Under the pieces are notes generated by a model, which saw only the letters and a program-made list of their open reading frames with translations, searched no databases and was not told the DNA's origin. A stretch of 64,000 nt of DNA, from NCBI GenBank assembly GCA_963755715.1, contig CAVWLW010000024.1, forward strand, positions 64,001 to 128,000, written 5' to 3'. Below are positions 10,758-53,311 of the stretch, piece after piece (within the stretch, counting starts at the first letter, position 1; each line of letters starts with the position of its first letter). This DNA is from an uncultured delta proteobacterium (GTDB taxonomy: Bacteria; Desulfobacterota; Binatia; UBA9968). Made by a program: the position numbers and the translations under genes.

Positions 10758-11104
10758 GCGGCGCCGCGATATTTTTCGGTGATTTTGTTCTTAGATAGCT
10801 ATTGCGTTGCTATCGAGAACGCTACGCCCGCTTTGGAAGCGGCGCCGCGCCATGCGAACGAGGCCGGGTGTAGCGTCGTCAGCTTGATTTTCCCGAGCGA
10901 ACATCGCGCGCAGATTAAAATCAACCGCCGAGCGTAGTCGTTCTTGCGCTCGCGCCGCGTAGCTGTGCAAACTTCGATCGTTGCGTTTCGCGTCGGTATT
11001 CTTCTCTTTTTTTCCTCCAATTTGTATCGAAACCTCTTACATATTTTGAGGCATCGGAAGCGCTGATACGGCAATTTCGCTGCGATCATTTCGTTGTTCG
11101 TTCG

Positions 11105-11120
11105 TGGCATATGCTTTGCT
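11105..11120 (+). promoter_or_regulatory. sigma54 (-24/-12) promoter
   Basis: TGGCAT-ATGCT-TTGCT with exact GG-N10-GC spacing, about 95 nt upstream of the ATG at 11216. Confidence 0.75.
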
Positions 11121-11215
11121 GACGAGACATCTGCGTGGACGAACTACTCGAAACTCGCCCGTGATTGTTCAGACCGGCGTCTGCTCACACAGTCGCCAAA
11201 AAATGGAGAAACGTT

Positions 11216-11836
11216 ATGGACACTCAAATGTGGATTGTCATTGTCGCTGTTCTCGTCGGCATTATTATTCTGCTCGGCGGACTGCTTTTTATGCAGAGAC
11301 ACCGTTCGCGGCATCTACAGGAGCGCTTCGGCCCGGAGTATGACCGGACTATACGCAAGTATGGCGATCAAAAAGATGCCGAGGCAGAGCTTTTAGCGCG
11401 CGAGCAGCGGGTCACCAAACTGCATATCGTTCCACTTTCCGCGGCGGACGCAGCCCGGTTCACGGAAGCCTGGCGTTCGGTGCAAAACCGTTTCGTTGAC
11501 GATCCCAAGGAGGCCGTGCAAGACGCTGATCGCCAAGTGCTCGAATTAATGCAACGGCGCGGTTATCCGACCGGCGACTTCGAGCAACGTGCGGCGGATC
11601 TTTCTGTCAGCCATGGCGCAGTGATCGATCATTACCGAGCGGCGCACGCGATCATTCGCGCGGATCAGGGAGGGCGAGCGAGCACAGAGGATCTAAGGAA
11701 GGCAATTGTCCATTATCGCGCGATTTTTGACGAACTGCTCGATACGCACAAATCAGAGACGAAGATTCACCAGACTGAAAAAAAAGGAGGTTGGCAATGG
11801 AAAACAGGGAGAGACATCTTTCGACGGCCGATATAG
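11216..11836 (+). CDS. hypothetical membrane-anchored protein with STEDLR motif
   Basis: N-terminal TM helix, then RFGPEYDR, FVDDP and STEDLR...YRAIFDELL; GGAG RBS. Confidence 0.8.
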   Translation: MDTQMWIVIVAVLVGIIILLGGLLFMQRHRSRHLQERFGPEYDRTIRKYGDQKDAEAELLAREQRVTKLHIVPLSAADAARFTEAWRSVQNRFVDDPKEAVQDADRQVLELMQRRGYPTGDFEQRAADLSVSHGAVIDHYRAAHAIIRADQGGRASTEDLRKAIVHYRAIFDELLDTHKSETKIHQTEKKGGWQWKTGRDIFRRPI

Positions 11837-12234
11837 CAGCGTCTTCTGAGCAACCGGAAGTTCAGCCCGAGCGGGTGGACTCGGCCCATAGGCATGAAGG
11901 GGCGATTGCTTTAGGGGAGGGCAGGCCGAACAGCCGGGAAACGGCGATCTAAGAAATGATCAATCGGTGCCGTTGTTTTCTAATGATTCGATTCAGGGTT
12001 TTCGCTCTCGGTGGACCGCGTTGCAGACTGGTTTTGTCGATGAGCCGCGACGATCCGTCGAGCAGGCGGATGAGCTTGGTCGCCGAGGTAATAAAGGATT
12101 TGGCATCGACTTTTGCCGATGAGCGGACAAAACTGGAACGCCAATGGGATCAGGGAGATAAAGTTTCGACTGAAGACTTGCGCTTAGTGTTGCGTCGTTA
12201 TCGGTCGTTTTTTGATCGGTTTCTTTCGATCTAG
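11797..12234 (+). CDS. hypothetical soluble paralog of the upstream gene, frameshifted
   Basis: AAGGAGG RBS then ATG at 11797; joined frames read ...RSRWTALQTGFVDEPRRSVEQAD-ELVAEVIKDL...STEDLRLVLRRYRSFFDRFLSI. Confidence 0.7.
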
Positions 12235-12422
12235 CCAACGGACGGGGTGTGTCGGCCCGCGAGAGTTGCCTGTAGCGAAAAGCTTCGCTCGGACGGCTTA
12301 TGAATCTCTCAACGAGGTTGAGGCCGAACAGATACTTTGAACGGGATTTTGCCGTCTTTGAGCTGACCATCTTTAACGTGGCGCCGGCGGCGGAAGTGAG
12401 ACGCGCCCAGCCGGTTTAGCTC

Positions 12423-14027
12423 ATGAGAGCCGTGGTCAAAAAATCACTGTTGTCGATCGGCGGCGCAATACTCGTTTTGTTGACGCTTGTCGTCGCCGCC
12501 TCATTCTTACTCGATGAGCCGTTGCGAAAAAGAATGGAGGCGGACTTAAATAATCGATTGAAGGGCTACACCGTCCGGATCGCTCGACTCGATTTTCATC
12601 CTTTTGGTTTTTCCCTGGATCTCGAAGACACAACCATTTTTCAAAACGCTCATCCGGAACCCGCTGTCGCGAAAATCCCCAACCTGACAGCCAGCGTTCA
12701 TTGGAAGGCTCTGCTTTTTGGCAAACTCGTCGCCGATTTTGCGATCGATAATCCCATCGTGCACGTGGATCTCCGGCAATTTACGGAAGAGGCTAAAGAC
12801 GACGTGCCGATGAAAGATCGGGGCTGGCAGGACGCTTTGCAGGCTATCTATCCGCTGAAAATCAATCGATTTACAATTCACAACGGCGATTTGACCTATG
12901 CAGACAAAGGTCCGTTTAAACCGCTGCGGATTACCCGGCTCGATTTCATCGCGGAAAACATTCGCAATGTCGAATCGGCGGAAGGCTCTTACCCGTCGCC
13001 GGTTTGGGTGCAGGGGATCGTGTTCGATACGGGAAAAATAAAAATCGACGGACATGCCGACTTTCTAGCCGAGCCGCATGTGACATTAAAGGGCGGCCTT
13101 CAGCTCCAGCAAATCACGTTGGATTACTTTAAACCAATCACGGAACGCTACCAATTGTCCGTCCAGCAAGGGGTACTCTCCAGCGATGCCATGATCGAAT
13201 ACGCGCGCGAAGGTACGAACATCCAGATCAAGCAACTGACTTTAGACAAATTGGTCGCGGACTACATCCACGTCGCGGCGACCGCCCCGACTGAAAAAAT
13301 CGCCAAGGAAGCGGGGAAAGCCACGAGAGAGCACAGCAACGATCCTACGTTTGAAGTGAAAGTGGATCGTCTGCAGGTCAGAAACAGCCAGCTTGGATAC
13401 GTGAACCGCGCGGCAAAACCCGCTTACCACGTGTTTTTTACCGATGCCAATATAGATATTGAAAATCTCAGCAGTCATCTTAAAGACGGTGTTGCGCGAG
13501 GGCACGCGAGCGGACGATTCATGGGCAGTGGTCCGAGCCGAATCGACGTGGCGTTTCGACCGGAAACGAAGGGCCCGGATTTTAATCTGGCGCTGAGCAT
13601 AGAAGATACCGACATGCGCAAAATGAATAATTTGTTTCGAGCCTATGGCAACTTCGATGTGGTCAATGGAAAGTTTGCTTTCTATTCTGATCTCAAGGTG
13701 CGCCAAGGAAAAATTGACGGCTACGTAAAACCGCTGTTTCACGATATGGACGTCTACGACCATCGGCAGGACCGGGACAAGAGCTTGTTCAGGAAACTTT
13801 ATGAAGGTTTAGTTGGCGGCATCTCTGCGTTGCTGACCAATCGGCCACGCGAGGAGGTAGCGACCAAAATTACGGTTTCCGGAGATATCGAGTCGCCTCA
13901 AACCAGCACCTGGGAAACTGTCGTCCGGCTGATCCAGAACGCATTTTTCCAAGCCATCCTGCCAGGCTTCGATAGAGAAATCGCGCAAGGCAAGAATAAC
14001 CGCAACAGCCGCAGCGCTACGTCCTAA
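12423..14027 (+). CDS. DUF748 / AsmA-like beta-rich envelope protein
   Basis: N-terminal TM anchor, long beta-rich body, C-terminal GYVKPLF...LYEGLVG...ATKITVSGDI...NAFFQAI region typical of DUF748 proteins. Confidence 0.75.
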   Translation: MRAVVKKSLLSIGGAILVLLTLVVAASFLLDEPLRKRMEADLNNRLKGYTVRIARLDFHPFGFSLDLEDTTIFQNAHPEPAVAKIPNLTASVHWKALLFGKLVADFAIDNPIVHVDLRQFTEEAKDDVPMKDRGWQDALQAIYPLKINRFTIHNGDLTYADKGPFKPLRITRLDFIAENIRNVESAEGSYPSPVWVQGIVFDTGKIKIDGHADFLAEPHVTLKGGLQLQQITLDYFKPITERYQLSVQQGVLSSDAMIEYAREGTNIQIKQLTLDKLVADYIHVAATAPTEKIAKEAGKATREHSNDPTFEVKVDRLQVRNSQLGYVNRAAKPAYHVFFTDANIDIENLSSHLKDGVARGHASGRFMGSGPSRIDVAFRPETKGPDFNLALSIEDTDMRKMNNLFRAYGNFDVVNGKFAFYSDLKVRQGKIDGYVKPLFHDMDVYDHRQDRDKSLFRKLYEGLVGGISALLTNRPREEVATKITVSGDIESPQTSTWETVVRLIQNAFFQAILPGFDREIAQGKNNRNSRSATS

Positions 14028-14272
14028 GGCTGGACGGAGTCAATCTTCACTCCTCCTGCGCAATCGGAAAGACCGAGCCTCCGCGAGGACAATTCCAATC
14101 TTTATTCAAGTCTAAATTCTCCTAAACGACTCAGCTCATGTTAGAAATTGTGTAAGTAAAAACCTTTAAGCGATATTTTTGCTGTCAGAATTTTTCTGAT
14201 TTAAAGGCGATCTCGAGTGTGCAGCATGGTGTTAACGGTTGAATTCGCTTGGAAATATATTGCGCAGCCGAA

Positions 14273-14288
14273 TGGCATCTTAGTTGCT
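14273..14288 (+). promoter_or_regulatory. sigma54 (-24/-12) promoter
   Basis: TGGCAT-CTTAG-TTGCT, 30 nt upstream of the BON gene ATG, with an AT-rich region upstream. Confidence 0.75.
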
Positions 14289-14317
14289 CTAGATTAGATT
14301 TTAATCGAGGAGGTAGA

Positions 14318-14713
14318 ATGAAGAGTTTTGTATTTGTTTTGCTTATTACAGTGATGACTGTTGCTTGTTCGCGTGACAAACAAAATCAATCGGCGAACGA
14401 TCGGACCTCAACCAATGTTGCGGCCGATAACAGCGGTCGCAATGCGCGGGATCGTGACGGAGCGACAAAGACCTCTGGAGATCAGTCAGAAAACGAAGCA
14501 GATCGAGCGCTCACTCAAAAAATCAGACAGGCGATCACCTCTGATGACGCGCTGTCGACGAATGGTCAGAACGTAAAGATTATTACGAGCGATGGCAAGG
14601 TGACGCTGCGCGGGCCGGTGAAAAGCGCAAAGGAGAAAGCCGATATCGCGGCGAAAGCCACACAGATTGCCGGAGTCAAACAGGTCGACAACCAATTAGA
14701 AGTTACGAATTAG
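14318..14713 (+). CDS. BON-domain (OsmY-like) lipoprotein
   Basis: GAGGAGG RBS; signal peptide ending TVAC; BON core ITSDGKVTLRGPV...GVKQVDNQLEV. Confidence 0.9.
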   Translation: MKSFVFVLLITVMTVACSRDKQNQSANDRTSTNVAADNSGRNARDRDGATKTSGDQSENEADRALTQKIRQAITSDDALSTNGQNVKIITSDGKVTLRGPVKSAKEKADIAAKATQIAGVKQVDNQLEVTN

Positions 14714-14728
14714 TCAAGGAGGAGTGCC

Positions 14729-15289
14729 ATGTCCAAGGCAGTATTTTGTCTCTGTGATAGCGAAAGCCAGGCGGAAATCATCGTTAACAACCTGAAAAAC
14801 GCGGGGGCGCTGAATAACGATATTTCGGTATTATTTCCTGATAAAGGCGGAACCCGGGATTTCGCCCACGAACAACACACCAAGGCTCCTGAAGGAGCGG
14901 CGGCGGGAGCAGGAGCAGGCGGTACTCTAGGCGGTATCATGGGCTGGCTGGTGGGAGTCGGCTCATTAGCAATCCCAGGCGTAGGGCCGGCCATCGCGGC
15001 CGGCCCGATTATGGCCGCACTGGCTGGGGCGGGTGTGGGGGCTGCGGTCGGCGGGTTTTCTGGGGCGCTGATTGGTCTGGGCATTCCCGAATATGAGGCG
15101 AAACAATACGAAGGTAAAATAAAAGGCGGCAACATTCTCATTTCCGTGCACACGGAAAATAGCCGGGAACGCGATCGCGTTAAAGAAATTTTTGAACGCG
15201 CCGGCGCGCACGACATTGCCTATACCGGGGAAGAAAGTATTTCGGACAAGGACAGGGCTAGGCCCGCGGGTTTTCGCGGCCACGCCTGA
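14729..15289 (+). CDS. glycine-zipper general stress membrane protein (general stress protein 17M / DUF3341-like)
   Basis: DISVL, GAAAGAGAGGTLGG...AIPGVGPAIAAGP...GLGIPEYEAKQYE...GGNILISVH pattern. Confidence 0.8.
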   Translation: MSKAVFCLCDSESQAEIIVNNLKNAGALNNDISVLFPDKGGTRDFAHEQHTKAPEGAAAGAGAGGTLGGIMGWLVGVGSLAIPGVGPAIAAGPIMAALAGAGVGAAVGGFSGALIGLGIPEYEAKQYEGKIKGGNILISVHTENSRERDRVKEIFERAGAHDIAYTGEESISDKDRARPAGFRGHA

Positions 15290-15326
15290 TTGTAATTTAG
15301 GAATGTAAATAAACAAGGAGGGTTCT

Positions 15327-15644
15327 ATGGCAAAGTTTGGGAAAGTTTTAGCAACTATGGTTTTGGTGTTTACGATGGCCGGCTGTCAGGCCATGACCGG
15401 CGAAACCGCCGGGCGTAACGTCGACGATGCGACGATCACGACTTCCGTGAAGACGAAATTGGCCGCCGATAAGGTCTCGAGCCTCACACGGGTTGACGTG
15501 GATACGAACAACGGCGTCGTCTCGCTCAATGGGGTAGTAGACTCGTCCGCGCAGAAGGCTCGCGCGCAGGAACTCGCATCCCAAGTCGGAGGCGTCAGCA
15601 AGGTTGTCAACAATCTTCAAGTGCAAGGAGCTCGCGCCAATTAA
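15327..15644 (+). CDS. BON-domain (OsmY-like) lipoprotein
   Basis: AAGGAGG RBS; lipobox MAGC; DDATITTSVKTKL...VDVDTNNGVVSLNG...GVSKVVNNL. Confidence 0.92.
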   Translation: MAKFGKVLATMVLVFTMAGCQAMTGETAGRNVDDATITTSVKTKLAADKVSSLTRVDVDTNNGVVSLNGVVDSSAQKARAQELASQVGGVSKVVNNLQVQGARAN

Positions 15645-15657
15645 TTATTCTTAGTTG

Positions 15658-15684
15658 GGCGCTGCCGGCGTCGCCGGCAGCGCC
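15658..15684 (+). terminator. GC-rich intra-operon hairpin (terminator or mRNA stabiliser)
   Basis: Perfect inverted repeat ggcgctgccggcg-t-cgccggcagcgcc just after the BON gene stop; no U-tract on the + strand. Confidence 0.5.
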
Positions 15685-15710
15685 TGTGAGGTTATTGGGG
15701 AGGATAAAAT

Positions 15711-15788
15711 ATGCCTGGTAATATCTTTTACATAATCGGTGTGGTGGTAGTTGTTTTATTCATTCTTGGATATCTCGGTTTGCGATAA
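15711..15788 (+). CDS. 25-aa single-TM microprotein MPGNIFYIIGVVVVVLFILGYLGLR
   Basis: Below the ORF-track cutoff; GGGAGGA RBS, ATG...TAA, hydrophobic core, in operon order between the BON and CsbD genes. Confidence 0.75.
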   Translation: MPGNIFYIIGVVVVVLFILGYLGLR

Positions 15789-15823
15789 AATCGTGGCGTA
15801 ATTCTTTAGAAGGAGAAGTTTAC

Positions 15824-16351
15824 ATGAACGAAGATATACTTGAGGGAAACTGGCGGCAATTGCGTGGCAAGCTCAGATCCTGGTGGGGCAATTTAAGTGA
15901 CGACGATTTTGAATGGATCGGCGGTCAAAAGGACCGGCTGATTGGATTGATCCAACAGAAGTATGGCTGTACGCGCGACCAAGCCGAGGAAGAAGTCGAT
16001 CATCGTTTCAGCGAATATCAGGGATTGGGCGACGATGGGCTGAGTGGAATCAAGGCGAAAACGTATGAGTTCGGCGAAACTGCCGCGAATAAAGCTCGTG
16101 GGGCCATTTCAGCGGTAGCGGACAGCGTTGAGACCGCTACTTCCTATCTGCGCGAGAATAAGTTCGAGGCGATGGCAGCCGATTTAAAGGAAGTCATTCG
16201 CAAGTATCCTGTGCAAGCGATAATACTCGGCCTCGGTGTGTTCTATCTGATGTCACGCGGTCGAAGTTATCGTCGGTTAGGCGATGTGTTGACCCGGCGG
16301 CGATCGCGGGATTTCACCGCCGCCCGGCCAGCGATCAAAGATGTGGGCTGA
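15824..16351 (+). CDS. csbD: CsbD-family protein with ElaB/YqjD (DUF883)-like C-terminal membrane tail
   Basis: MNEDILEGNWRQLRGKLRSWWGNLSDDD...GLIQQKYG CsbD signature; C-terminal IRKYPVQAIILGLGVFYLMSR. Confidence 0.85.
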   Translation: MNEDILEGNWRQLRGKLRSWWGNLSDDDFEWIGGQKDRLIGLIQQKYGCTRDQAEEEVDHRFSEYQGLGDDGLSGIKAKTYEFGETAANKARGAISAVADSVETATSYLRENKFEAMAADLKEVIRKYPVQAIILGLGVFYLMSRGRSYRRLGDVLTRRRSRDFTAARPAIKDVG

Positions 16352-16357
16352 CTTCTT

Positions 16358-17071
16358 CTAGCTTTTGGCTGGCTGGCGGCAGTCAATAATTGCTTTCAAC
16401 GGCAGGTGGTCCGAGGCTATTCGGCTCAGCGGTGTTCTAAAGCAGCTCAGTGTCGTCAGGGCGCCGGGCGGAGAAACCCAGATTCGATCGAGCGCAAACA
16501 ACGGGAAGGCCGACGGGAAGGTCCGGATCAGCGCGGTTTTTCCCAGTCGCGTATGGATCCAACGCAGCGAACGACCGGTCGGCATCCATTCATTGAAATC
16601 GCTCATCACGATCACGATTCGACTTCGCTGATTTCCTAGCGCGGCTAAAAGTTTCCCAACTTGGAAACGCCGCTCAGCGCCGCGAAGTCCAAGATGTGTG
16701 ACGATCACACGCACTGTTTCGCCATCCAGATCGAGGTCAGCGTCTATGGCGCCGCGCGGTTCTCGGCGGCGATAAGTGAGATCGATTTTGTTCACCGCCA
16801 GGATCTTGCCGCTAGTTAGCAAAACGTTGCCGTAGTGTCCGTTGCGCCGTTCTACCGATGGGCCGGAAACCGCCTGCAACCCCGTGACCCGTGCTAAATA
16901 GTTCATCTGGTGCAATTCTTCCGCGCCGGTCCCATCCGAGTGAACTTCCTGGAGGCCGATGATCTGAGCGCCGCTGTCTCGGATAACCTGCGCGACCCGC
17001 GTCGGGTCGCGGCGTCGGTCCGAGCCGACGCACTCATGGATATTGTAGGACAGAGCCGTGATCGGTTGCAT
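16358..17071 (-). CDS. endonuclease/exonuclease/phosphatase (EEP) family protein, YbhP-like
   Basis: SYNIH, LQEV, YGNVLL, THLGL, DFNEW, LDRIW and SDHLPL motifs. Confidence 0.92.
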   Translation of the reverse strand: MQPITALSYNIHECVGSDRRRDPTRVAQVIRDSGAQIIGLQEVHSDGTGAEELHQMNYLARVTGLQAVSGPSVERRNGHYGNVLLTSGKILAVNKIDLTYRRREPRGAIDADLDLDGETVRVIVTHLGLRGAERRFQVGKLLAALGNQRSRIVIVMSDFNEWMPTGRSLRWIHTRLGKTALIRTFPSAFPLFALDRIWVSPPGALTTLSCFRTPLSRIASDHLPLKAIIDCRQPAKS

Positions 17072-17205
17072 GTTCGTGCGCTGGATCTGAGAGCATCGTC
17101 AGCGGGCGCGGCCGAATCGGCTCATCGCGGAAGATTCGTGCGCCACGCAGACGAATACGCCGCAGCGTCGATAGAGCACTGCGGTTTGAAGCGAAATTTC
17201 GTCGC

Positions 17206-17289
17206 TTATCTTAGGACTCCGAACAACCAGAGCAAAACAAGAATACTGAGCGGAACTCCTAAAAGCCATAAAATAATACCTGGTACCAT
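17206..17289 (-). CDS. 27-aa single-TM microprotein MVPGIILWLLGVPLSILVLLWLFGVLR
   Basis: Not in the ORF track; AAGGAGGTG RBS immediately upstream; first gene after the minus-strand sigma54 promoter. Confidence 0.78.
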   Translation of the reverse strand: MVPGIILWLLGVPLSILVLLWLFGVLR

Positions 17290-17344
17290 GGTTCACCTCC
17301 TTCTTTTTTCGTCGCGTTTAATTCAGCCGCGCGATGGTAAATTT

Positions 17345-17360
17345 TGCAACCGACATGCCA
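17345..17360 (-). promoter_or_regulatory. sigma54 (-24/-12) promoter
   Basis: Minus strand reads TGGCAT-GTCGG-TTGCA, 56 nt upstream of the microprotein ATG. Confidence 0.75.
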
Positions 17361-17694
17361 CTATGCTTGGCATCACTTAATGCAGCAAATTTCGCAGCTT
17401 GGGTGAACAAGGAAAACCAAACAAGTTCGTAAAGAAGAGAAAATCCTTCGCTCGCACCATTCGTTTCAGGAAGTTTACGGATCTCTTACGCGATGGCAAT
17501 GGCTTATTTAGATGACCAACCAAATCTTGAAGTGTCATGCCGAGGACCAACTGCAACTGTTCCGTCGGGATGGACTCATTGACAAATTCGCCCTGTATCG
17601 GATATTTCAAAAAGGACGGTTAGATGCCGGCGGCGCGCGGATATCGGCAGTGATCGACAAATTACGATTCATTTTTTAAAGGAGGATTCCAACC

Positions 17695-18855
17695 GTGGTG
17701 ATGTTAGGCACAGACATGAAAGTCGCGGAGACCCCCAAAGAGGGTCTCAAAGATTACACTAAGACCGATCCTTACGCAGAATGGCTGCAGAAGGAGGGCG
17801 TCAGAGTTTATAAGAACCACTACTTTCCGAGCTTGGCCAAGATCGAGCTCGGTCCATGGGAGCGAAAGGGAGGAAGTGGAGCGATCGTCCACATCGATAA
17901 CCGTCACATGCCCAACGATTGTCACGTCATCGAGATCAAGCCAGGCGGTAAGTCGGAGCCGGAGCATCACATGTATGAGCTCACGATCTATGTCGTTTCC
18001 GGCCGGGGCGCAACGACCATCTGGCAGGACGAAAAACAAAAGAGTAGCTTCGAGTGGCAGGCCGGCAGCCTGTTTTCAATCCCACTCAACGCGAAGTACC
18101 AAAACTTCAACGGCAGCGGCCAAGAGCCGGCGCGCTATATCGCGGTAACCAACGCGCCGCCGATGATGCGTCTATACCGCGACAATGATTTCATCTTCAA
18201 TTGCAATTACCTGTTTCACAAGCGTTACGCGGGGGAGGAAGATTACTTCAGCGGCAAGGGCAAGCTTTTCAACCGGCGCATATGGGAATCCAACTTCATC
18301 GCCAATGCGCCGGACATGTTGCTCTACGGCTGGAAGGAGCGCGGCGCCGGCGGCATCAACGCGATGCTGGAGATGGCTGAAAATAACACCAAGAGCCACA
18401 TCTCCGAGTTTCCGATCGGCACCTACAAAAAAGCACACCGCCATGGTCCCGGCGCCCATCTCGTGCTACTCAGCGGCACCGGCGGCTACTCGTTGATTTG
18501 GACCAAAGAAGATCGTTCCGACATGATCAAGTGCGATTGGCAATTAGGCTCGATGGTGACCGTGCCCGCCGACAACTGCTATCATCAGCATTTCAATTCT
18601 GGAACGACGCGAGCCCGGTATCTTGCGCTTCGCCCCGGTGACATGGGCCTTTATAAAGGCCGTGGCGGCGGCGGCGAGAATGCCGACCGGAGCATGAAGG
18701 AAGGCGGTTGGCAGATCGAGTACGAGGATGAAGATCGCGAAATTCACGGGATCTTCGAGAAGGAGCTCAAGGCTCATGGGGCGACGTGCAAGATGAAAGC
18801 CTTTGTGCCGTGGTGCACCGGCGAAGTCGGGCCGACGAGCGAGCGCGATACGTAA
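17695..18855 (+). CDS. bicupin (two cupin domains) protein
   Basis: Cupin motifs PEHHMYE...VVSGRG...FEWQAGSLFSIP and AHRHGPG...HQHFN; AAGGAGG RBS. Confidence 0.85.
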   Translation: MVMLGTDMKVAETPKEGLKDYTKTDPYAEWLQKEGVRVYKNHYFPSLAKIELGPWERKGGSGAIVHIDNRHMPNDCHVIEIKPGGKSEPEHHMYELTIYVVSGRGATTIWQDEKQKSSFEWQAGSLFSIPLNAKYQNFNGSGQEPARYIAVTNAPPMMRLYRDNDFIFNCNYLFHKRYAGEEDYFSGKGKLFNRRIWESNFIANAPDMLLYGWKERGAGGINAMLEMAENNTKSHISEFPIGTYKKAHRHGPGAHLVLLSGTGGYSLIWTKEDRSDMIKCDWQLGSMVTVPADNCYHQHFNSGTTRARYLALRPGDMGLYKGRGGGGENADRSMKEGGWQIEYEDEDREIHGIFEKELKAHGATCKMKAFVPWCTGEVGPTSERDT

Positions 18856-29912: not shown

Positions 29913-30318
29913 GATGACGCGCATGGGTTTTAGTGCGCCACAGTTACAACGGATCAAATCGGCAAGTCAAACTTCAAGGCCGGAGCTTTCGCCAGCCCTC
30001 TTTTTAGGCAGGTCCTGAGCGATAAAATGAGCATCCGAGCAGAGGTTGCAAAGTTGTAACACTGATTTTAGCGAGAATATCTCGGTAAAACCCCTGGCAT
30101 CGACATTGCTGTCCCATAATTCGAATTTTGCGCGCAAGATAGCCTTGTGCTATACGGCAGAGGGCGCCGATGGGTGTGTTTTGCCCTGAATCGCTCGTTG
30201 CCGATTAGAAGAAAACAAAATTGCGGCCGGGCGCTGTGTCTCCGGCAGACCACTTACTCGCTACGTAAAAGATGAGCTTCGTATAATCGACGAACCACCC
30301 AGACCAAGGAGGCGTCAC

Positions 30319-31362
30319 GTGACAAGTAAAGCTTCATCGAGTTGTATCGTGCTGGCAATCGTTTCTTTTCTCCTCTCCATCTCCTGCTTTTCTTTTGTCT
30401 TCGCCGCCGGCGCGCCGGCCAGCGAATCCCTCGACCAGCTTTACGAAAAGGCCAAGAAAGAAGGGGGCAAGATAACCCTTTATGCGCCGCTTTCCAGTAG
30501 GGCTATGGAGGTGATCCCGCAAGCCTTTATGAAAAAATTTCCCGGGCTGACGGTGAACCACATCGATGCGACGCCGGATGAACTGCTCGCGCGCGCGAGC
30601 GCCGAGGCGCGCGGCGGCCGGATTATCGCGGACGTGCTGGGCGGATCGCTGGCTTACATCAATCAAGCCGTCGATCAAAAACTGCTCACGCCGCTGGAAC
30701 TGCCGGAAGCCGCGGCCTTCCCGGCGGCTCTGAAAAGCGGTTTCTGGGTCGCGACGGACACGCAGTTTTATATCACGGGATGGAATACCAATCTGGTCAA
30801 AAAAGCCGACGAGCCCAAGAGCTTTGAGGATCTTGCCAGTCCGAAGTGGAAAGACCTTATGATGGGCGAGGCGCGCGATTTTCAAATGCTGATCGGGTTC
30901 GCTAAGCGCAAATACAAAAACGATGAAAAGGCCATCGAGTTATTTAAACGTATCGCCGCGAATCAGGTTGAATTTCATAAGGGCCATTCCCAGCTCATCG
31001 AATTTTTGGTCGCGGGGCAACGCGCTCTATGCTTCACCTGTTACTCGCACCATTTCCCGCCGCGGGTTAAAAAAGGCGCGCCCATTCAAGCCATGTTGAC
31101 CGAAGGGGTCGGCGAAGTCGGCGGCACGGTTTCTGTTCTCAGAGGCGCGCCGCACCCCAACGCCGGTTTGCTCTGGGCGCGCTGGGCGATCAGCGAAGAA
31201 GGCCAGCGAGTCTGGGCTCAAGGGGGCGAGACACCGGCGCATCCGCACGTGGAACCTTTGGATAAGGTTCGCCCCGAGGCGATTTACATGTTGACCAGCG
31301 ACGACATTAAAGAGTTTCCGAAGTACGAAAAAATGTGGAAGGAAATTTTTCAAATAAGATAA
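30319..31362 (+). CDS. ABC extracellular solute-binding protein, Fe3+/FbpA-like class
   Basis: AKKEGGKITLY, WNTNLVK...PKSFEDL...KWK, APHPNAG; AAGGAGG RBS; divergent paralog of the preceding gene. Confidence 0.88.
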   Translation: MTSKASSSCIVLAIVSFLLSISCFSFVFAAGAPASESLDQLYEKAKKEGGKITLYAPLSSRAMEVIPQAFMKKFPGLTVNHIDATPDELLARASAEARGGRIIADVLGGSLAYINQAVDQKLLTPLELPEAAAFPAALKSGFWVATDTQFYITGWNTNLVKKADEPKSFEDLASPKWKDLMMGEARDFQMLIGFAKRKYKNDEKAIELFKRIAANQVEFHKGHSQLIEFLVAGQRALCFTCYSHHFPPRVKKGAPIQAMLTEGVGEVGGTVSVLRGAPHPNAGLLWARWAISEEGQRVWAQGGETPAHPHVEPLDKVRPEAIYMLTSDDIKEFPKYEKMWKEIFQIR

Positions 31363-51822: not shown

Positions 51823-51838
51823 TGGCATATTGCTTGCT
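51823..51838 (+). promoter_or_regulatory. sigma54 (-24/-12) promoter
   Basis: TGGCAT-ATTGC-TTGCT after an AT-rich tract, pointing at the GT4 gene about 320 nt downstream. Confidence 0.7.
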
Positions 51839-52159
51839 GATAAAGCGAGTTGACACGGATGCTGTTGAGATTACGCTCAAGACCGCGAGAAAATGATGCT
51901 CCATGTTTTGTCCTGCGGTCATGTGGCGAGCGGATGTGCGAGTTTTCGAGGGAGCGTCACGGACGAGAGCGACAGGTGCCGCCATTCAACCCGAAGCGAA
52001 TCTGCCCCGCGGTTCCGGATTGATTTTGTTCCGGTCGGCCAGCCCTATTTGAGTTTTCGCTAGCGTATCCGTTTCTCTATCACTGCGTGGAAGGGACCCA
52101 AAACGCAGGAATGCGCAGCTTTGCGTGTTTTCGGGAAAAAATTAGAAACGGAGAGTTCC

Positions 52160-53311
52160 ATGAGAATTGCCCAGGTTGCGCCACTTTACGAACGCGTACC
52201 GCCGCTTTATTACGGCGGCACGGAGCGGGTCGTATCCTATTTAACCGAAGAATTGGTCGATCAAGGCCACGAGGTCACGCTCTTCGCCAGCGGCGATTCG
52301 TTGACCAAAGCGAAATTGGTTTCGCCCTGTGCCCAATCGCTTCGCCTCAATTCAAATTGCGCCGATTACCTCGCTTATCATGTGTTGCAGCTGGAGCAAA
52401 TTTTTCAACAGGCGCATTTGTTCGATATCGTCCATTTTCACATCGATTATTTTCACTACCCGTTTTTGCGCCGCCAGGACATAGCCCACGTAACCACCTT
52501 GCATGGCCGGCTGGACATGCCCGACCTAGTGCCGCTTTATAGCGAATTCGACGATATGCCGGTGGTATCGATCTCCGATGCGCAGAGAACGCCGTTGGCA
52601 TGGATCGACTGGCATGGGACCGTGTATCACGGCTTGCCGTTCAATCTTTACAGATTCAGCAAACAGCAAGGCAAGTACTTGGCATTTTTGGGGAGAATCT
52701 CTCCGGAAAAACGGGTAGACCGGGCCATCGAGATCGCCAAACGCGCCAATATGCCGCTGAAGATCGCGGCTAAAATCGATGCCGTGGACCGCTGTTACAT
52801 GGAGAAAGAAATACGCCCGCTTTTGGATCATCCACTGGTGGAATTTATCGGCGAGATCGACGATGCCGGCAAAGGCGAGTTTTTGAGAAATGCCTACGCA
52901 TTGCTTTTTCCGATCGATTGGCCGGAACCGTTTGGATTGGTCATGACCGAAGCCATGGCTTGCGGCACGCCGACCGTGGCTTTTCGACACGGTTCGGTGC
53001 CCGAAGTCCTCGACGATCAGATCAGCGGCTATGTTGTCGACGATGTCGAGCAAGCGGTCGAGGCGTTGAAGGCAATCCGCCATTTCGATCGCGCGCGTTG
53101 CCGACGCGTGTTCGAGGAGCGTTTTTCGGTGCGCCGCATGGCGCAGGACTACGTAAAAATTTATCAGCGCGTGATCGACGGCAGAGTCCGAGCGCATTCG
53201 ACGCCGGCATGGCAAAATGGCGCGATCATGCCGCGCCGCGATGAGATAGCGGCGAAGGGCAACGGAGCGCCGCTCGCAGCAGCCGGTTCCGCCGCCAATC
53301 TTTCGCATTAG
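52160..53311 (+). CDS. glycosyltransferase family 4 (GT-B)
   Basis: MRIAQVAP...PPLYYGGTERVV, FLGRISPEK, WPEPFGLVMTEAMACGTP. Confidence 0.93.
   Translation: MRIAQVAPLYERVPPLYYGGTERVVSYLTEELVDQGHEVTLFASGDSLTKAKLVSPCAQSLRLNSNCADYLAYHVLQLEQIFQQAHLFDIVHFHIDYFHYPFLRRQDIAHVTTLHGRLDMPDLVPLYSEFDDMPVVSISDAQRTPLAWIDWHGTVYHGLPFNLYRFSKQQGKYLAFLGRISPEKRVDRAIEIAKRANMPLKIAAKIDAVDRCYMEKEIRPLLDHPLVEFIGEIDDAGKGEFLRNAYALLFPIDWPEPFGLVMTEAMACGTPTVAFRHGSVPEVLDDQISGYVVDDVEQAVEALKAIRHFDRARCRRVFEERFSVRRMAQDYVKIYQRVIDGRVRAHSTPAWQNGAIMPRRDEIAAKGNGAPLAAAGSAANLSH

Follow-up and report, generated by a model that had tools for sequence, protein, structure and literature searches.

The classical sigma-54 promoter has the consensus TGGCAC-N5-TTGCW, as in the NtrC–glnA system, and enterobacteria use sigma-54 in the stress modules PspF-psp, ZraR-zraP, RtcR-rtcBA and ibpB. 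Genes for OsmY, CsbD/YjbJ, YflT and ElaB-type proteins are covered by the general stress regulons of RpoS, SigB and EcfG. Here we analyse a 64,000-nucleotide stretch of bacterial DNA (the window; C24:64001-128000 of a 7.41-Mb assembly of 76 contigs, with 56% G+C and 93.6% completeness), in which copies of the motif TGGCAT-N5-TTGCW precede, among others, a 'STEDLR' gene pair followed by a DUF748 gene, a BON-to-CsbD series of small stress-type genes and a gene for an endonuclease/exonuclease/phosphatase (EEP) family hydrolase.

A further system for comparison is the NmpRSTU/NmpR oxygen-utilisation regulon of Myxococcus xanthus, in which an NtrC-like response regulator and sigma-54 promoters control several operons (PMC11841059). 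For the genome studied here we consider it probable that the motifs belong to a multi-activator sigma-54 network of roughly 110–150 promoters and 31 enhancer-binding proteins (EBPs), with the stress genes split among several of these activators.

Sigma-54 promoter motifs in the window and the genome

The window holds five copies of TGGCAT-N5-TTGCW; 100 shuffles that preserve dinucleotides average 0.05, and none reached five. All five are intergenic and oriented towards the next gene:

11105..11120, + strand: P1, predicted sigma-54 promoter; exact motif, matrix score 19.3, GG at 11106-07, GC at 11118-19, predicted start about 11131
14273..14288, + strand: P2, predicted sigma-54 promoter; exact motif, matrix score 19.7, predicted start about 14299, 19 nt 5′ of the ATG
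17345..17360, − strand: P3, weaker candidate sigma-54 promoter (TTGCA); exact motif, matrix score only 13.9, predicted start about 17334
30095..30110, + strand: P4, predicted sigma-54 promoter before a solute-binding protein gene; exact motif, matrix score 20.0, predicted start about 30121
51823..51838, + strand: P5, predicted sigma-54 promoter before a GT4 glycosyltransferase gene; exact motif, matrix score 22.4, predicted start about 51849

A first-pass annotation of this DNA had listed four copies as intergenic sites aimed at the next gene (11105 +, 14273 +, 17345 − and 51823 +), and all four are there, on those strands; the description as intergenic and gene-directed extends to the fifth. 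Its accompanying remark that no such motif stands before transport genes was mistaken, because that fifth copy, P4, lies 238 nt 5′ of a gene for a periplasmic solute-binding protein. The flanks of the five sites show no mutual relatedness. P3 has the lowest matrix score of the five (13.9 against 19.3–22.4), which makes it a doubtful site.

Genome-wide, the strict motif occurs in 47 copies, 41 of them intergenic and directed at a gene within 400 nt, two otherwise intergenic and four in coding sequence, on the gene calls of a rough custom open reading frame (ORF) caller (8,216 genes, 84% coding sequence). The same half-sites at other spacings yield 6 (N3), 5 (N4), 7 (N6) and 10 (N7) genome copies. 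When the N4, N6 and N7 controls were sorted by their placement relative to genes, coding sequence accounted for 5/5 of the N4 and 9/10 of the N7 copies, and the seven N6 copies comprised two coding, two gene-directed and three otherwise intergenic ones. In the five window and 47 genome copies GG and GC stand ten bases apart, as sigma-54 requires, and the upstream half-site is preferentially TGGCAT (47 copies genome-wide) over TGGCAC (12 copies). A weight matrix trained on the genome's own strict sites returned, at the main cut-off score of at least 16, 113 intergenic gene-directed matches, 22 otherwise intergenic matches and 29 in coding sequence, which makes up 84% of the genome. Judged by how they are spaced, placed and oriented and by their recurrence before orthologues, the five motifs are, as predicted from sequence, sigma-54 (RpoN) −24/−12 promoters of working type.

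Conservation before orthologues

Relatives were drawn from a family sample of 60 other genomes and a genus sample of 30 other genomes; the ortholog-promoter counts include loci of two genomes flagged as unpublished, G042 (L090) and G074 (L172, L182 and L202), all four of which are misses. P1 precedes both same-genus STEDLR loci fetched (2/2; scores 23.3 and 22.1). It also occurs, at the same 93-nt distance and with a score of 17.6, in the nearest named record, a contig (L096, 84% identity) of a 'Candidatus Udaeobacter sp.' metagenome-assembled genome. This contig is one of only two among 34 related STEDLR loci outside the lineage at which the promoter was found; since the other 32 lack it, the P1 wiring is lineage-specific. 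As far as this one named hit goes, the lineage is probably a soil verrucomicrobium near 'Candidatus Udaeobacter'.

Relatives of the BON gene at 14318 occupy 14 loci in 12 of the 60 family genomes, and at eight of the 14 a same-strand matrix match resembling P2 (scores 14.8–20.6) precedes the gene by 26–135 nt, its spacer differing in sequence. P2 likewise precedes two of four same-genus BON-YflT loci. The gene order BON-YflT-hemerythrin/BON is maintained in relatives, and in one of them (G080) the microprotein–CsbD pair carries its own sigma-54 promoter (score 18.3). Among the best CsbD loci in other genus genomes, 10 of 29 have a match scoring at least 14 within 300 nt upstream, compared with about 0.15 of 29 expected by chance from the density of matrix matches in the genome. 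P5 was found before 5 of 11 same-genus GT4 loci, at about 270–320 nt from the gene in three of these, where the gene DNA is 73–87% identical. P4 recurs at 2 of the 11 same-genus loci examined for its solute-binding family, which has many duplicated members, and P3 before only one of five EEP loci, that of G071 with 88% identical DNA, the other four EEP orthologues being without it. Conservation before orthologues, to be expected if the motifs are promoters, is seen for P1 (2/2), P2 (8/14 and 2/4), P5 (5/11), P4 (2/11) and CsbD (10/29), and for P3 only in a near-identical genome (1/5). Where the promoters recur in relatives, the GG and GC elements are retained as the spacers drift.

It is barely credible that the motif is a chance match, the site of another DNA-binding protein or a repeat element: the shuffles and other-spacing controls, the orientation of 41 of the 47 copies at genes, the unrelated flanks of the five window sites and the conservation before orthologues all speak against it.

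RpoN, other sigma factors and activators

The genome has one rpoN locus (C34:25710-26186, within C34:24210-27686), which a single frameshift, near position 2500 of the latter, fetched stretch, splits into two overlapping frames. One frame carries the activator-interacting region I and the other the core-binding and DNA-binding domains, with the RpoN box ARRTVAKYR intact. On the window's own contig, rpoD (C24:162084-165314) is likewise in two overlapping frames, and genes for 2-oxoglutarate dehydrogenase, AcrB and Ysc84 are in pieces too; because these genes are also split, we read the rpoN frameshift as an assembly indel, and the assembly probably carries many single-base indels. The rpoN gene that a sigma-54 regulon presupposes is thus found with all its domains and RpoN box, although its reading frame is split in the assembly.

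If rpoN were instead a pseudogene, as its two overlapping frames might suggest, the promoters would be relics and the genes would be read from other promoters. Against this, no domain is missing from the two rpoN pieces and the RpoN box is intact, similar splits affect rpoD and several other genes, and 30 of the 31 EBP frames are long (314–1,570 aa) and open across the AAA+ domain, the exception being a 219-aa fragment (L158). In relatives, moreover, GG and GC are kept while the spacers drift, and a scan for sigma-70-like promoters gave no excess of alternatives (6 found, 4.6 expected); a terminator scan was likewise at chance level. We regard the relic explanation as highly improbable.

The 31 strong EBP genes (PF00158, E <= 1e-59) comprise 18 two-component response regulators with a receiver domain, others with GAF, PAS or MASE1 sensors and one with a bare AAA+ plus HTH layout; HTH_8 was matched at E <= 1e-6 in 14 of them. 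The sensor-less EBP with the bare layout (C63:85199-86140, 314 aa, PspF-like) is flanked by two sigma-54 promoters. Its neighbours within C63:83719-88066 are uncharacterised proteins of 168 and 167 aa on one side and a PaaA/PaaC-like ferritin-fold protein on the other, and Usp genes follow about 3 kb downstream.

The sigma-70 family is represented by 18 matches, of which two are RpoD-like and one RpoH-like, these three making up groups 1–3, and about 15 are of ECF type. With curated profiles on this 93.6%-complete genome, no RpoS (top score 293, cut-off 379) and no SigB/F/G (top score 134, cut-off 234) was found, nor was there any PhyR_sigma2 match that would indicate PhyR. Elsewhere, a strict sigma-54 promoter at C43:157768-157783 (+) lies 45 nt 5′ of a 69-aa ORF without known family. 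Downstream, in the same orientation, come rpoZ (64 aa) and then the sole RpoH-like sigma gene (329 aa), the intervening gaps being 154 and 114 nt; such an arrangement could amount to a sigma-54 to sigma-32 cascade.

Predicted targets and enrichment of stress families

The predicted targets lean towards small proteins: the median first gene behind a promoter encodes 148 aa, compared with 228 aa for all genes, and 50 of the 113 first genes, mostly ORFs under about 150 aa, have no Pfam family at E <= 0.001. Stress-type first genes include those for BON (3), Usp (2), hemerythrin (2), CsbD, DUF883, AhpC, DUF1328 and a glycine zipper, and further ones encode an HtrA-like protease, an M48 peptidase and CBS and SRPBCC proteins. 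YflT, BON, CsbD, hemerythrin and OsmC appear as later genes in the units, and a paralogous BON-YflT-hemerythrin operon on C36 also lies behind a sigma-54 promoter. Nitrogen targets are amt, glnB-amtB, a microprotein gene followed by glnA and a small ORF followed by a nirB-type operon. Other targets comprise genes for solute-binding, ABC and permease proteins, for murein and envelope proteins and for glycosyltransferases, along with an RND efflux operon and three EBP genes.

Predicted sigma-54 units hold 12 of the 35 BON, CsbD, Usp and hemerythrin genes and 231 of all 8,216 genes (2.8%), an odds ratio of 19 (Fisher p 9e-11). By family, the counts are 5/16 for BON, 1/4 for CsbD, 2/9 for Usp and 4/6 for hemerythrin, with the window's CsbD gene scored negative under a 150-nt gap rule and two matches without a gene call counted as negative. 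Sigma-54 is associated with stress genes far beyond chance, yet two thirds of the paralogues are wired otherwise: 23 of the 35 tested genes have no sigma-54 promoter and are most likely under other control.

Eleven predicted sigma-54 promoters fall within 110 kb of C30, in a hotspot recorded at C30:7000-66500. Their targets include 2-oxoglutarate dehydrogenase, a CBS protein, an ADH-SDR-hemerythrin unit, a hemerythrin, an HtrA-like protease, AhpC, DUF883 and DUF4168, and a response-regulator EBP in this hotspot has its own sigma-54 promoter, an autoregulated arrangement. Separately, 272-aa genes with BON matches of identical score lie on three contigs (C32:168615-169433, C47:1483-2301 and C12:59114-59932) and are probably a repeated element or an assembly duplicate.

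Search for a shared activator site

No upstream activator site common to the 113 promoters emerged from palindromic 4- and 5-mer dyads or from 6–8-mer words. An all-against-all comparison of 16-mers gave 160 pairs with at least 14 matches and 94 after shuffling, with no global motif. Dyads with one mispair allowed (best p 2e-4 over 4,074 tests) gave no global motif either, nor did the 11 C30-hotspot promoters taken alone or GCCAATT- and GGTAA-type words. The 24 stress-type promoters, when inspected, had no shared upstream site. The NmpR site GCGCA-N5-TGCGC, with up to two mismatches, was not enriched (16 of 113 promoters, 231 of 1,200 control regions), and neither in the 3.3-kb BON loci of relatives nor next to the window operons is there an EBP gene.

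A near-palindrome, GGTAATTTnTACC, occurs 77–89 nt upstream of four sigma-54 promoters, all before small-protein genes, two of them glycine-zipper units (C24:63107, at a glycine-zipper gene just upstream of the window, C6:62170, L027:348-569 and L046:14-259). The statistics are weak (p about 0.01–0.05); these promoters may make up a small set served by a specific activator, in the vicinity of the EBP at C6:63188-64543.

These results bear on whether a single dedicated activator, whether or not it uses a DNA site, turns on all stress-type promoters and so commands a true general stress response. The enrichment of stress families behind the promoters, the failure to find RpoS, SigB or PhyR and the promoters before CsbD and BON genes across genus and family would fit such an activator, as would the 17 of 31 EBPs without HTH_8 (E <= 1e-6) and the PspF-like protein at C63:85199-86140. 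Weighed against them are the failure to find a site shared across the 113 promoters or across the 24 stress-type ones, the promoter missing before 23 of the 35 stress-family genes, the 3.3-kb BON loci of relatives without an EBP gene and the presence of 31 EBPs for about 113 promoters, which makes a single regulon unlikely. A single activator for all stress genes therefore seems to us unlikely, though less so one that works without a DNA site, and because 31 activators face about 113–150 promoters, several activator-specific sets are the most economical reading.

A second way to unite the stress-type promoters would be to make them part of an NtrC nitrogen-starvation regulon, co-induced with glnA, amtB and glnB, and sigma-54 promoters do also stand before amt, glnB-amtB, the microprotein–glnA pair and the nirB-type operon. 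The palindromic dyad scans, however, found no site common to nitrogen and stress promoters, and the nitrogen promoters cluster on C76 beside their own EBP fragment, far from the window. We consider this very unlikely.

The proposal of the first-pass annotation, that the lineage may run its general or osmotic stress response through sigma-54 and an EBP, accordingly survives in part. Stress families are enriched behind the promoters, as it had anticipated (12/35 against 231/8,216). A single regulon is unlikely, the scans above having found no shared site and the genome having 31 EBPs. A stress-specific regulon is contradicted by the sigma-54 promoters before amt, glnB-amtB, glnA, nirB-type, transport, RND efflux and murein genes, and treating the stress genes as one set is at odds with the BON, Usp and CsbD paralogues, most of which have no promoter.

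Genes behind the window promoters and their occurrence in soil

The genes that follow the five sites are these:

11216..11836, + strand: 206-aa membrane-anchored protein, first of the 'STEDLR' pair; no Pfam or NCBIfam match
11956..12234, + strand: second STEDLR protein, 92 aa; ORF with no Pfam match, joined with the first STEDLR gene by RNA-library contigs
12423..14027, + strand: DUF748/AsmA-like envelope protein, 534 aa; PF05359, E 1.2e-33
14318..14713, + strand: BON-domain lipoprotein-like protein, 131 aa; PF04972, E 1.2e-14, weak OsmY match
14729..15289, + strand: YflT-type stress protein with a glycine-zipper middle, 186 aa; 77% identity to the C36 paralogue, which matches PF11181 YflT
15327..15644, + strand: second BON protein, 105 aa; PF04972, E 9.6e-19
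15711..15788, + strand: hydrophobic microprotein ORF, 25 aa, with a ribosome-binding site; read from sequence, no family match
15824..16351, + strand: CsbD-domain protein with a C-terminal extension, 175 aa; PF05532, E 3.6e-12
16358..17071, − strand: EEP family hydrolase, 237 aa; PF03372, E 1.4e-15
17206..17289, − strand: hydrophobic microprotein ORF, 27 aa, with a ribosome-binding site; read from sequence, no family match
30349..31362, + strand: periplasmic solute-binding protein gene behind P4; SBP_bac_11/6/1 matches
52160..53311, + strand: GT4 glycosyltransferase gene behind P5; Glycos_transf_1 and Glyco_transf_4 matches

Pfam, NCBIfam and Atlas give no function for the 206-aa STEDLR protein, whose nearest Atlas clusters are unnamed 'secreted protein' clusters and whose 34 related loci are spread across many phyla; a DUF748 gene also lies downstream of the STEDLR pair in the genomes G080 and G073. 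The YflT assignment of the 14729-15289 product is shared by its orthologues in relatives, which match YflT. Directly behind the second BON gene, ahead of the microprotein–CsbD pair, lies a 12-bp hairpin (15657-15685), G+C-rich, perfectly paired and lacking a T tract, whereas G080 has a sigma-54 promoter for that pair instead. The two microprotein ORFs, both inside sigma-54 units, have good ribosome-binding sites and similar N-termini (M-P-G-N-I... in one and M-V-P-G-I-I... in the other). Predicted leaders are long behind P5 (about 310 nt, 51839-52159) and P4 (about 230 nt, 30111-30348); an Rfam search of the whole window returned 0 matches, with none in either leader.

The organism or its close kin is widespread in soil: the 6.9-kb stretch 10800-17700 occurs at least in part in 20 soil or rhizosphere metagenome runs from 11 studies, 14 of which hold at least half of its sampled 31-mers, with top shares of 0.60–0.70. 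Six RNA libraries also hold parts of this stretch. Three stretches, 11217-14044, 14317-16592 and 16731-17301, are tiled by contigs that come from three studies and four soil RNA libraries; these cover the STEDLR-DUF748 genes, the whole BON-to-CsbD stretch with its microprotein at 15711-15788 and the EEP gene up to 17301. Upstream of P1 (bin 10800-11030) and of P2 (bin 14034-14264), RNA contigs are absent or nearly so. In two studies contigs stop at 17282-17301, shortly inside the transcript predicted for P3, which is at most a weak hint.

Discussion

In the multi-activator network that we favour, sigma-54 RNA polymerase would sit closed on each promoter until an ATP-hydrolysing activator, triggered by its own signal, opens it; because the closed polymerase needs its activator, each gene set would stay off until that signal arrives. 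Sigma-54 would serve the classical nitrogen genes in this lineage and would also have been placed before small protective proteins (BON/OsmY-like, YflT, CsbD, DUF883, Usp, hemerythrin, AhpC, OsmC, glycine-zipper and hydrophobic microproteins) and before envelope proteins (DUF748/AsmA and GT4). Control of the stress genes is most likely spread over several activators, with no single master regulator.

Several points weigh against this interpretation. Every gene-based count depends on a rough custom ORF caller, and transcription starts are predicted from sequence, the RNA evidence consisting of contigs that are uninformative on ends, strand and level. The rpoN gene is frameshifted in the assembly, and the indel artefact is our own interpretation of that. 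Usp and hemerythrin joined the enrichment test after the target list had been viewed; the families named at the outset give BON 5/16 and CsbD 1/4. P3 is weak in matrix score and poorly conserved. Simple k-mer, dyad and pairwise scans could miss a shared enhancer, and some of the 17 EBPs without HTH_8 at the above threshold might act without a DNA site.

A bolder extension, which we hold to be rather unlikely, is that sigma-54 and a panel of two-component activators took over the role of a general-stress sigma factor in soil Verrucomicrobia of the 'Udaeobacter' type, and perhaps in other soil phyla without RpoS, SigB or PhyR, in a distributed, activator-gated form. OsmY/BON, YflT, CsbD, Usp, hemerythrin and small membrane proteins would then each be silent until a specific kinase signal. 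The organisation of stress survival in the abundant, mostly uncultured soil phyla is largely obscure, because the textbook regulators RpoS, SigB and EcfG/PhyR are absent there. If sigma-54 gates a third of the BON/CsbD/hemerythrin-type genes, their expression would be all-or-none and signal-specific, not driven by growth phase, and the 31 activators would be handles for finding the soil signals (drying, oxygen, nitrogen) that trigger protection. About 50 small unannotated proteins, probably stress-related, can also be listed from the promoter set.

Our literature searches found no paper that places BON/OsmY, YflT or CsbD-type genes under sigma-54, and none on sigma-54 in 'Udaeobacter' or Verrucomicrobia. 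A term search of Francke et al. 2011 (PMC3162934) gave no mention of OsmY, 'osmotic', 'universal stress', Verrucomicrobia or Acidobacteria.

Comparison with known systems

The network resembles classical sigma-54/EBP systems in its GG and GC ten bases apart, its intergenic gene-directed sites, its rpoN and PF00158 activators and its nitrogen targets. It differs in preferring TGGCAT (47) over TGGCAC (12), in its size, with 31 EBPs against about 15 ECF sigma factors, and in targets that lean to small stress proteins (median first gene 148 aa, compared with 228 aa). With the RpoS, SigB and EcfG regulons it shares the kinds of protective gene targeted (BON/OsmY-like, CsbD, YflT, DUF883 and Usp); unlike theirs, its promoters are of the sigma-54 type and depend on an ATPase activator, the profile searches found neither RpoS nor SigB nor PhyR, nothing points to a single regulator, and only roughly one in three paralogues is wired in this way. 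The likeness to the enterobacterial modules lies in sigma-54 with a dedicated activator for envelope stress or repair and in the PspF layout of C63:85199-86140, but those modules are single-operon systems and the set here is far broader, taking in BON, CsbD and YflT genes. The NmpR regulon (PMC11841059) is alike in combining a soil bacterium with sigma-54 promoters for environmental genes; its site is not enriched here, and its target genes and phylum differ. The promoters are thus of the ordinary sigma-54 class, and what sets them apart is the repertoire of their targets and the scale of the network.

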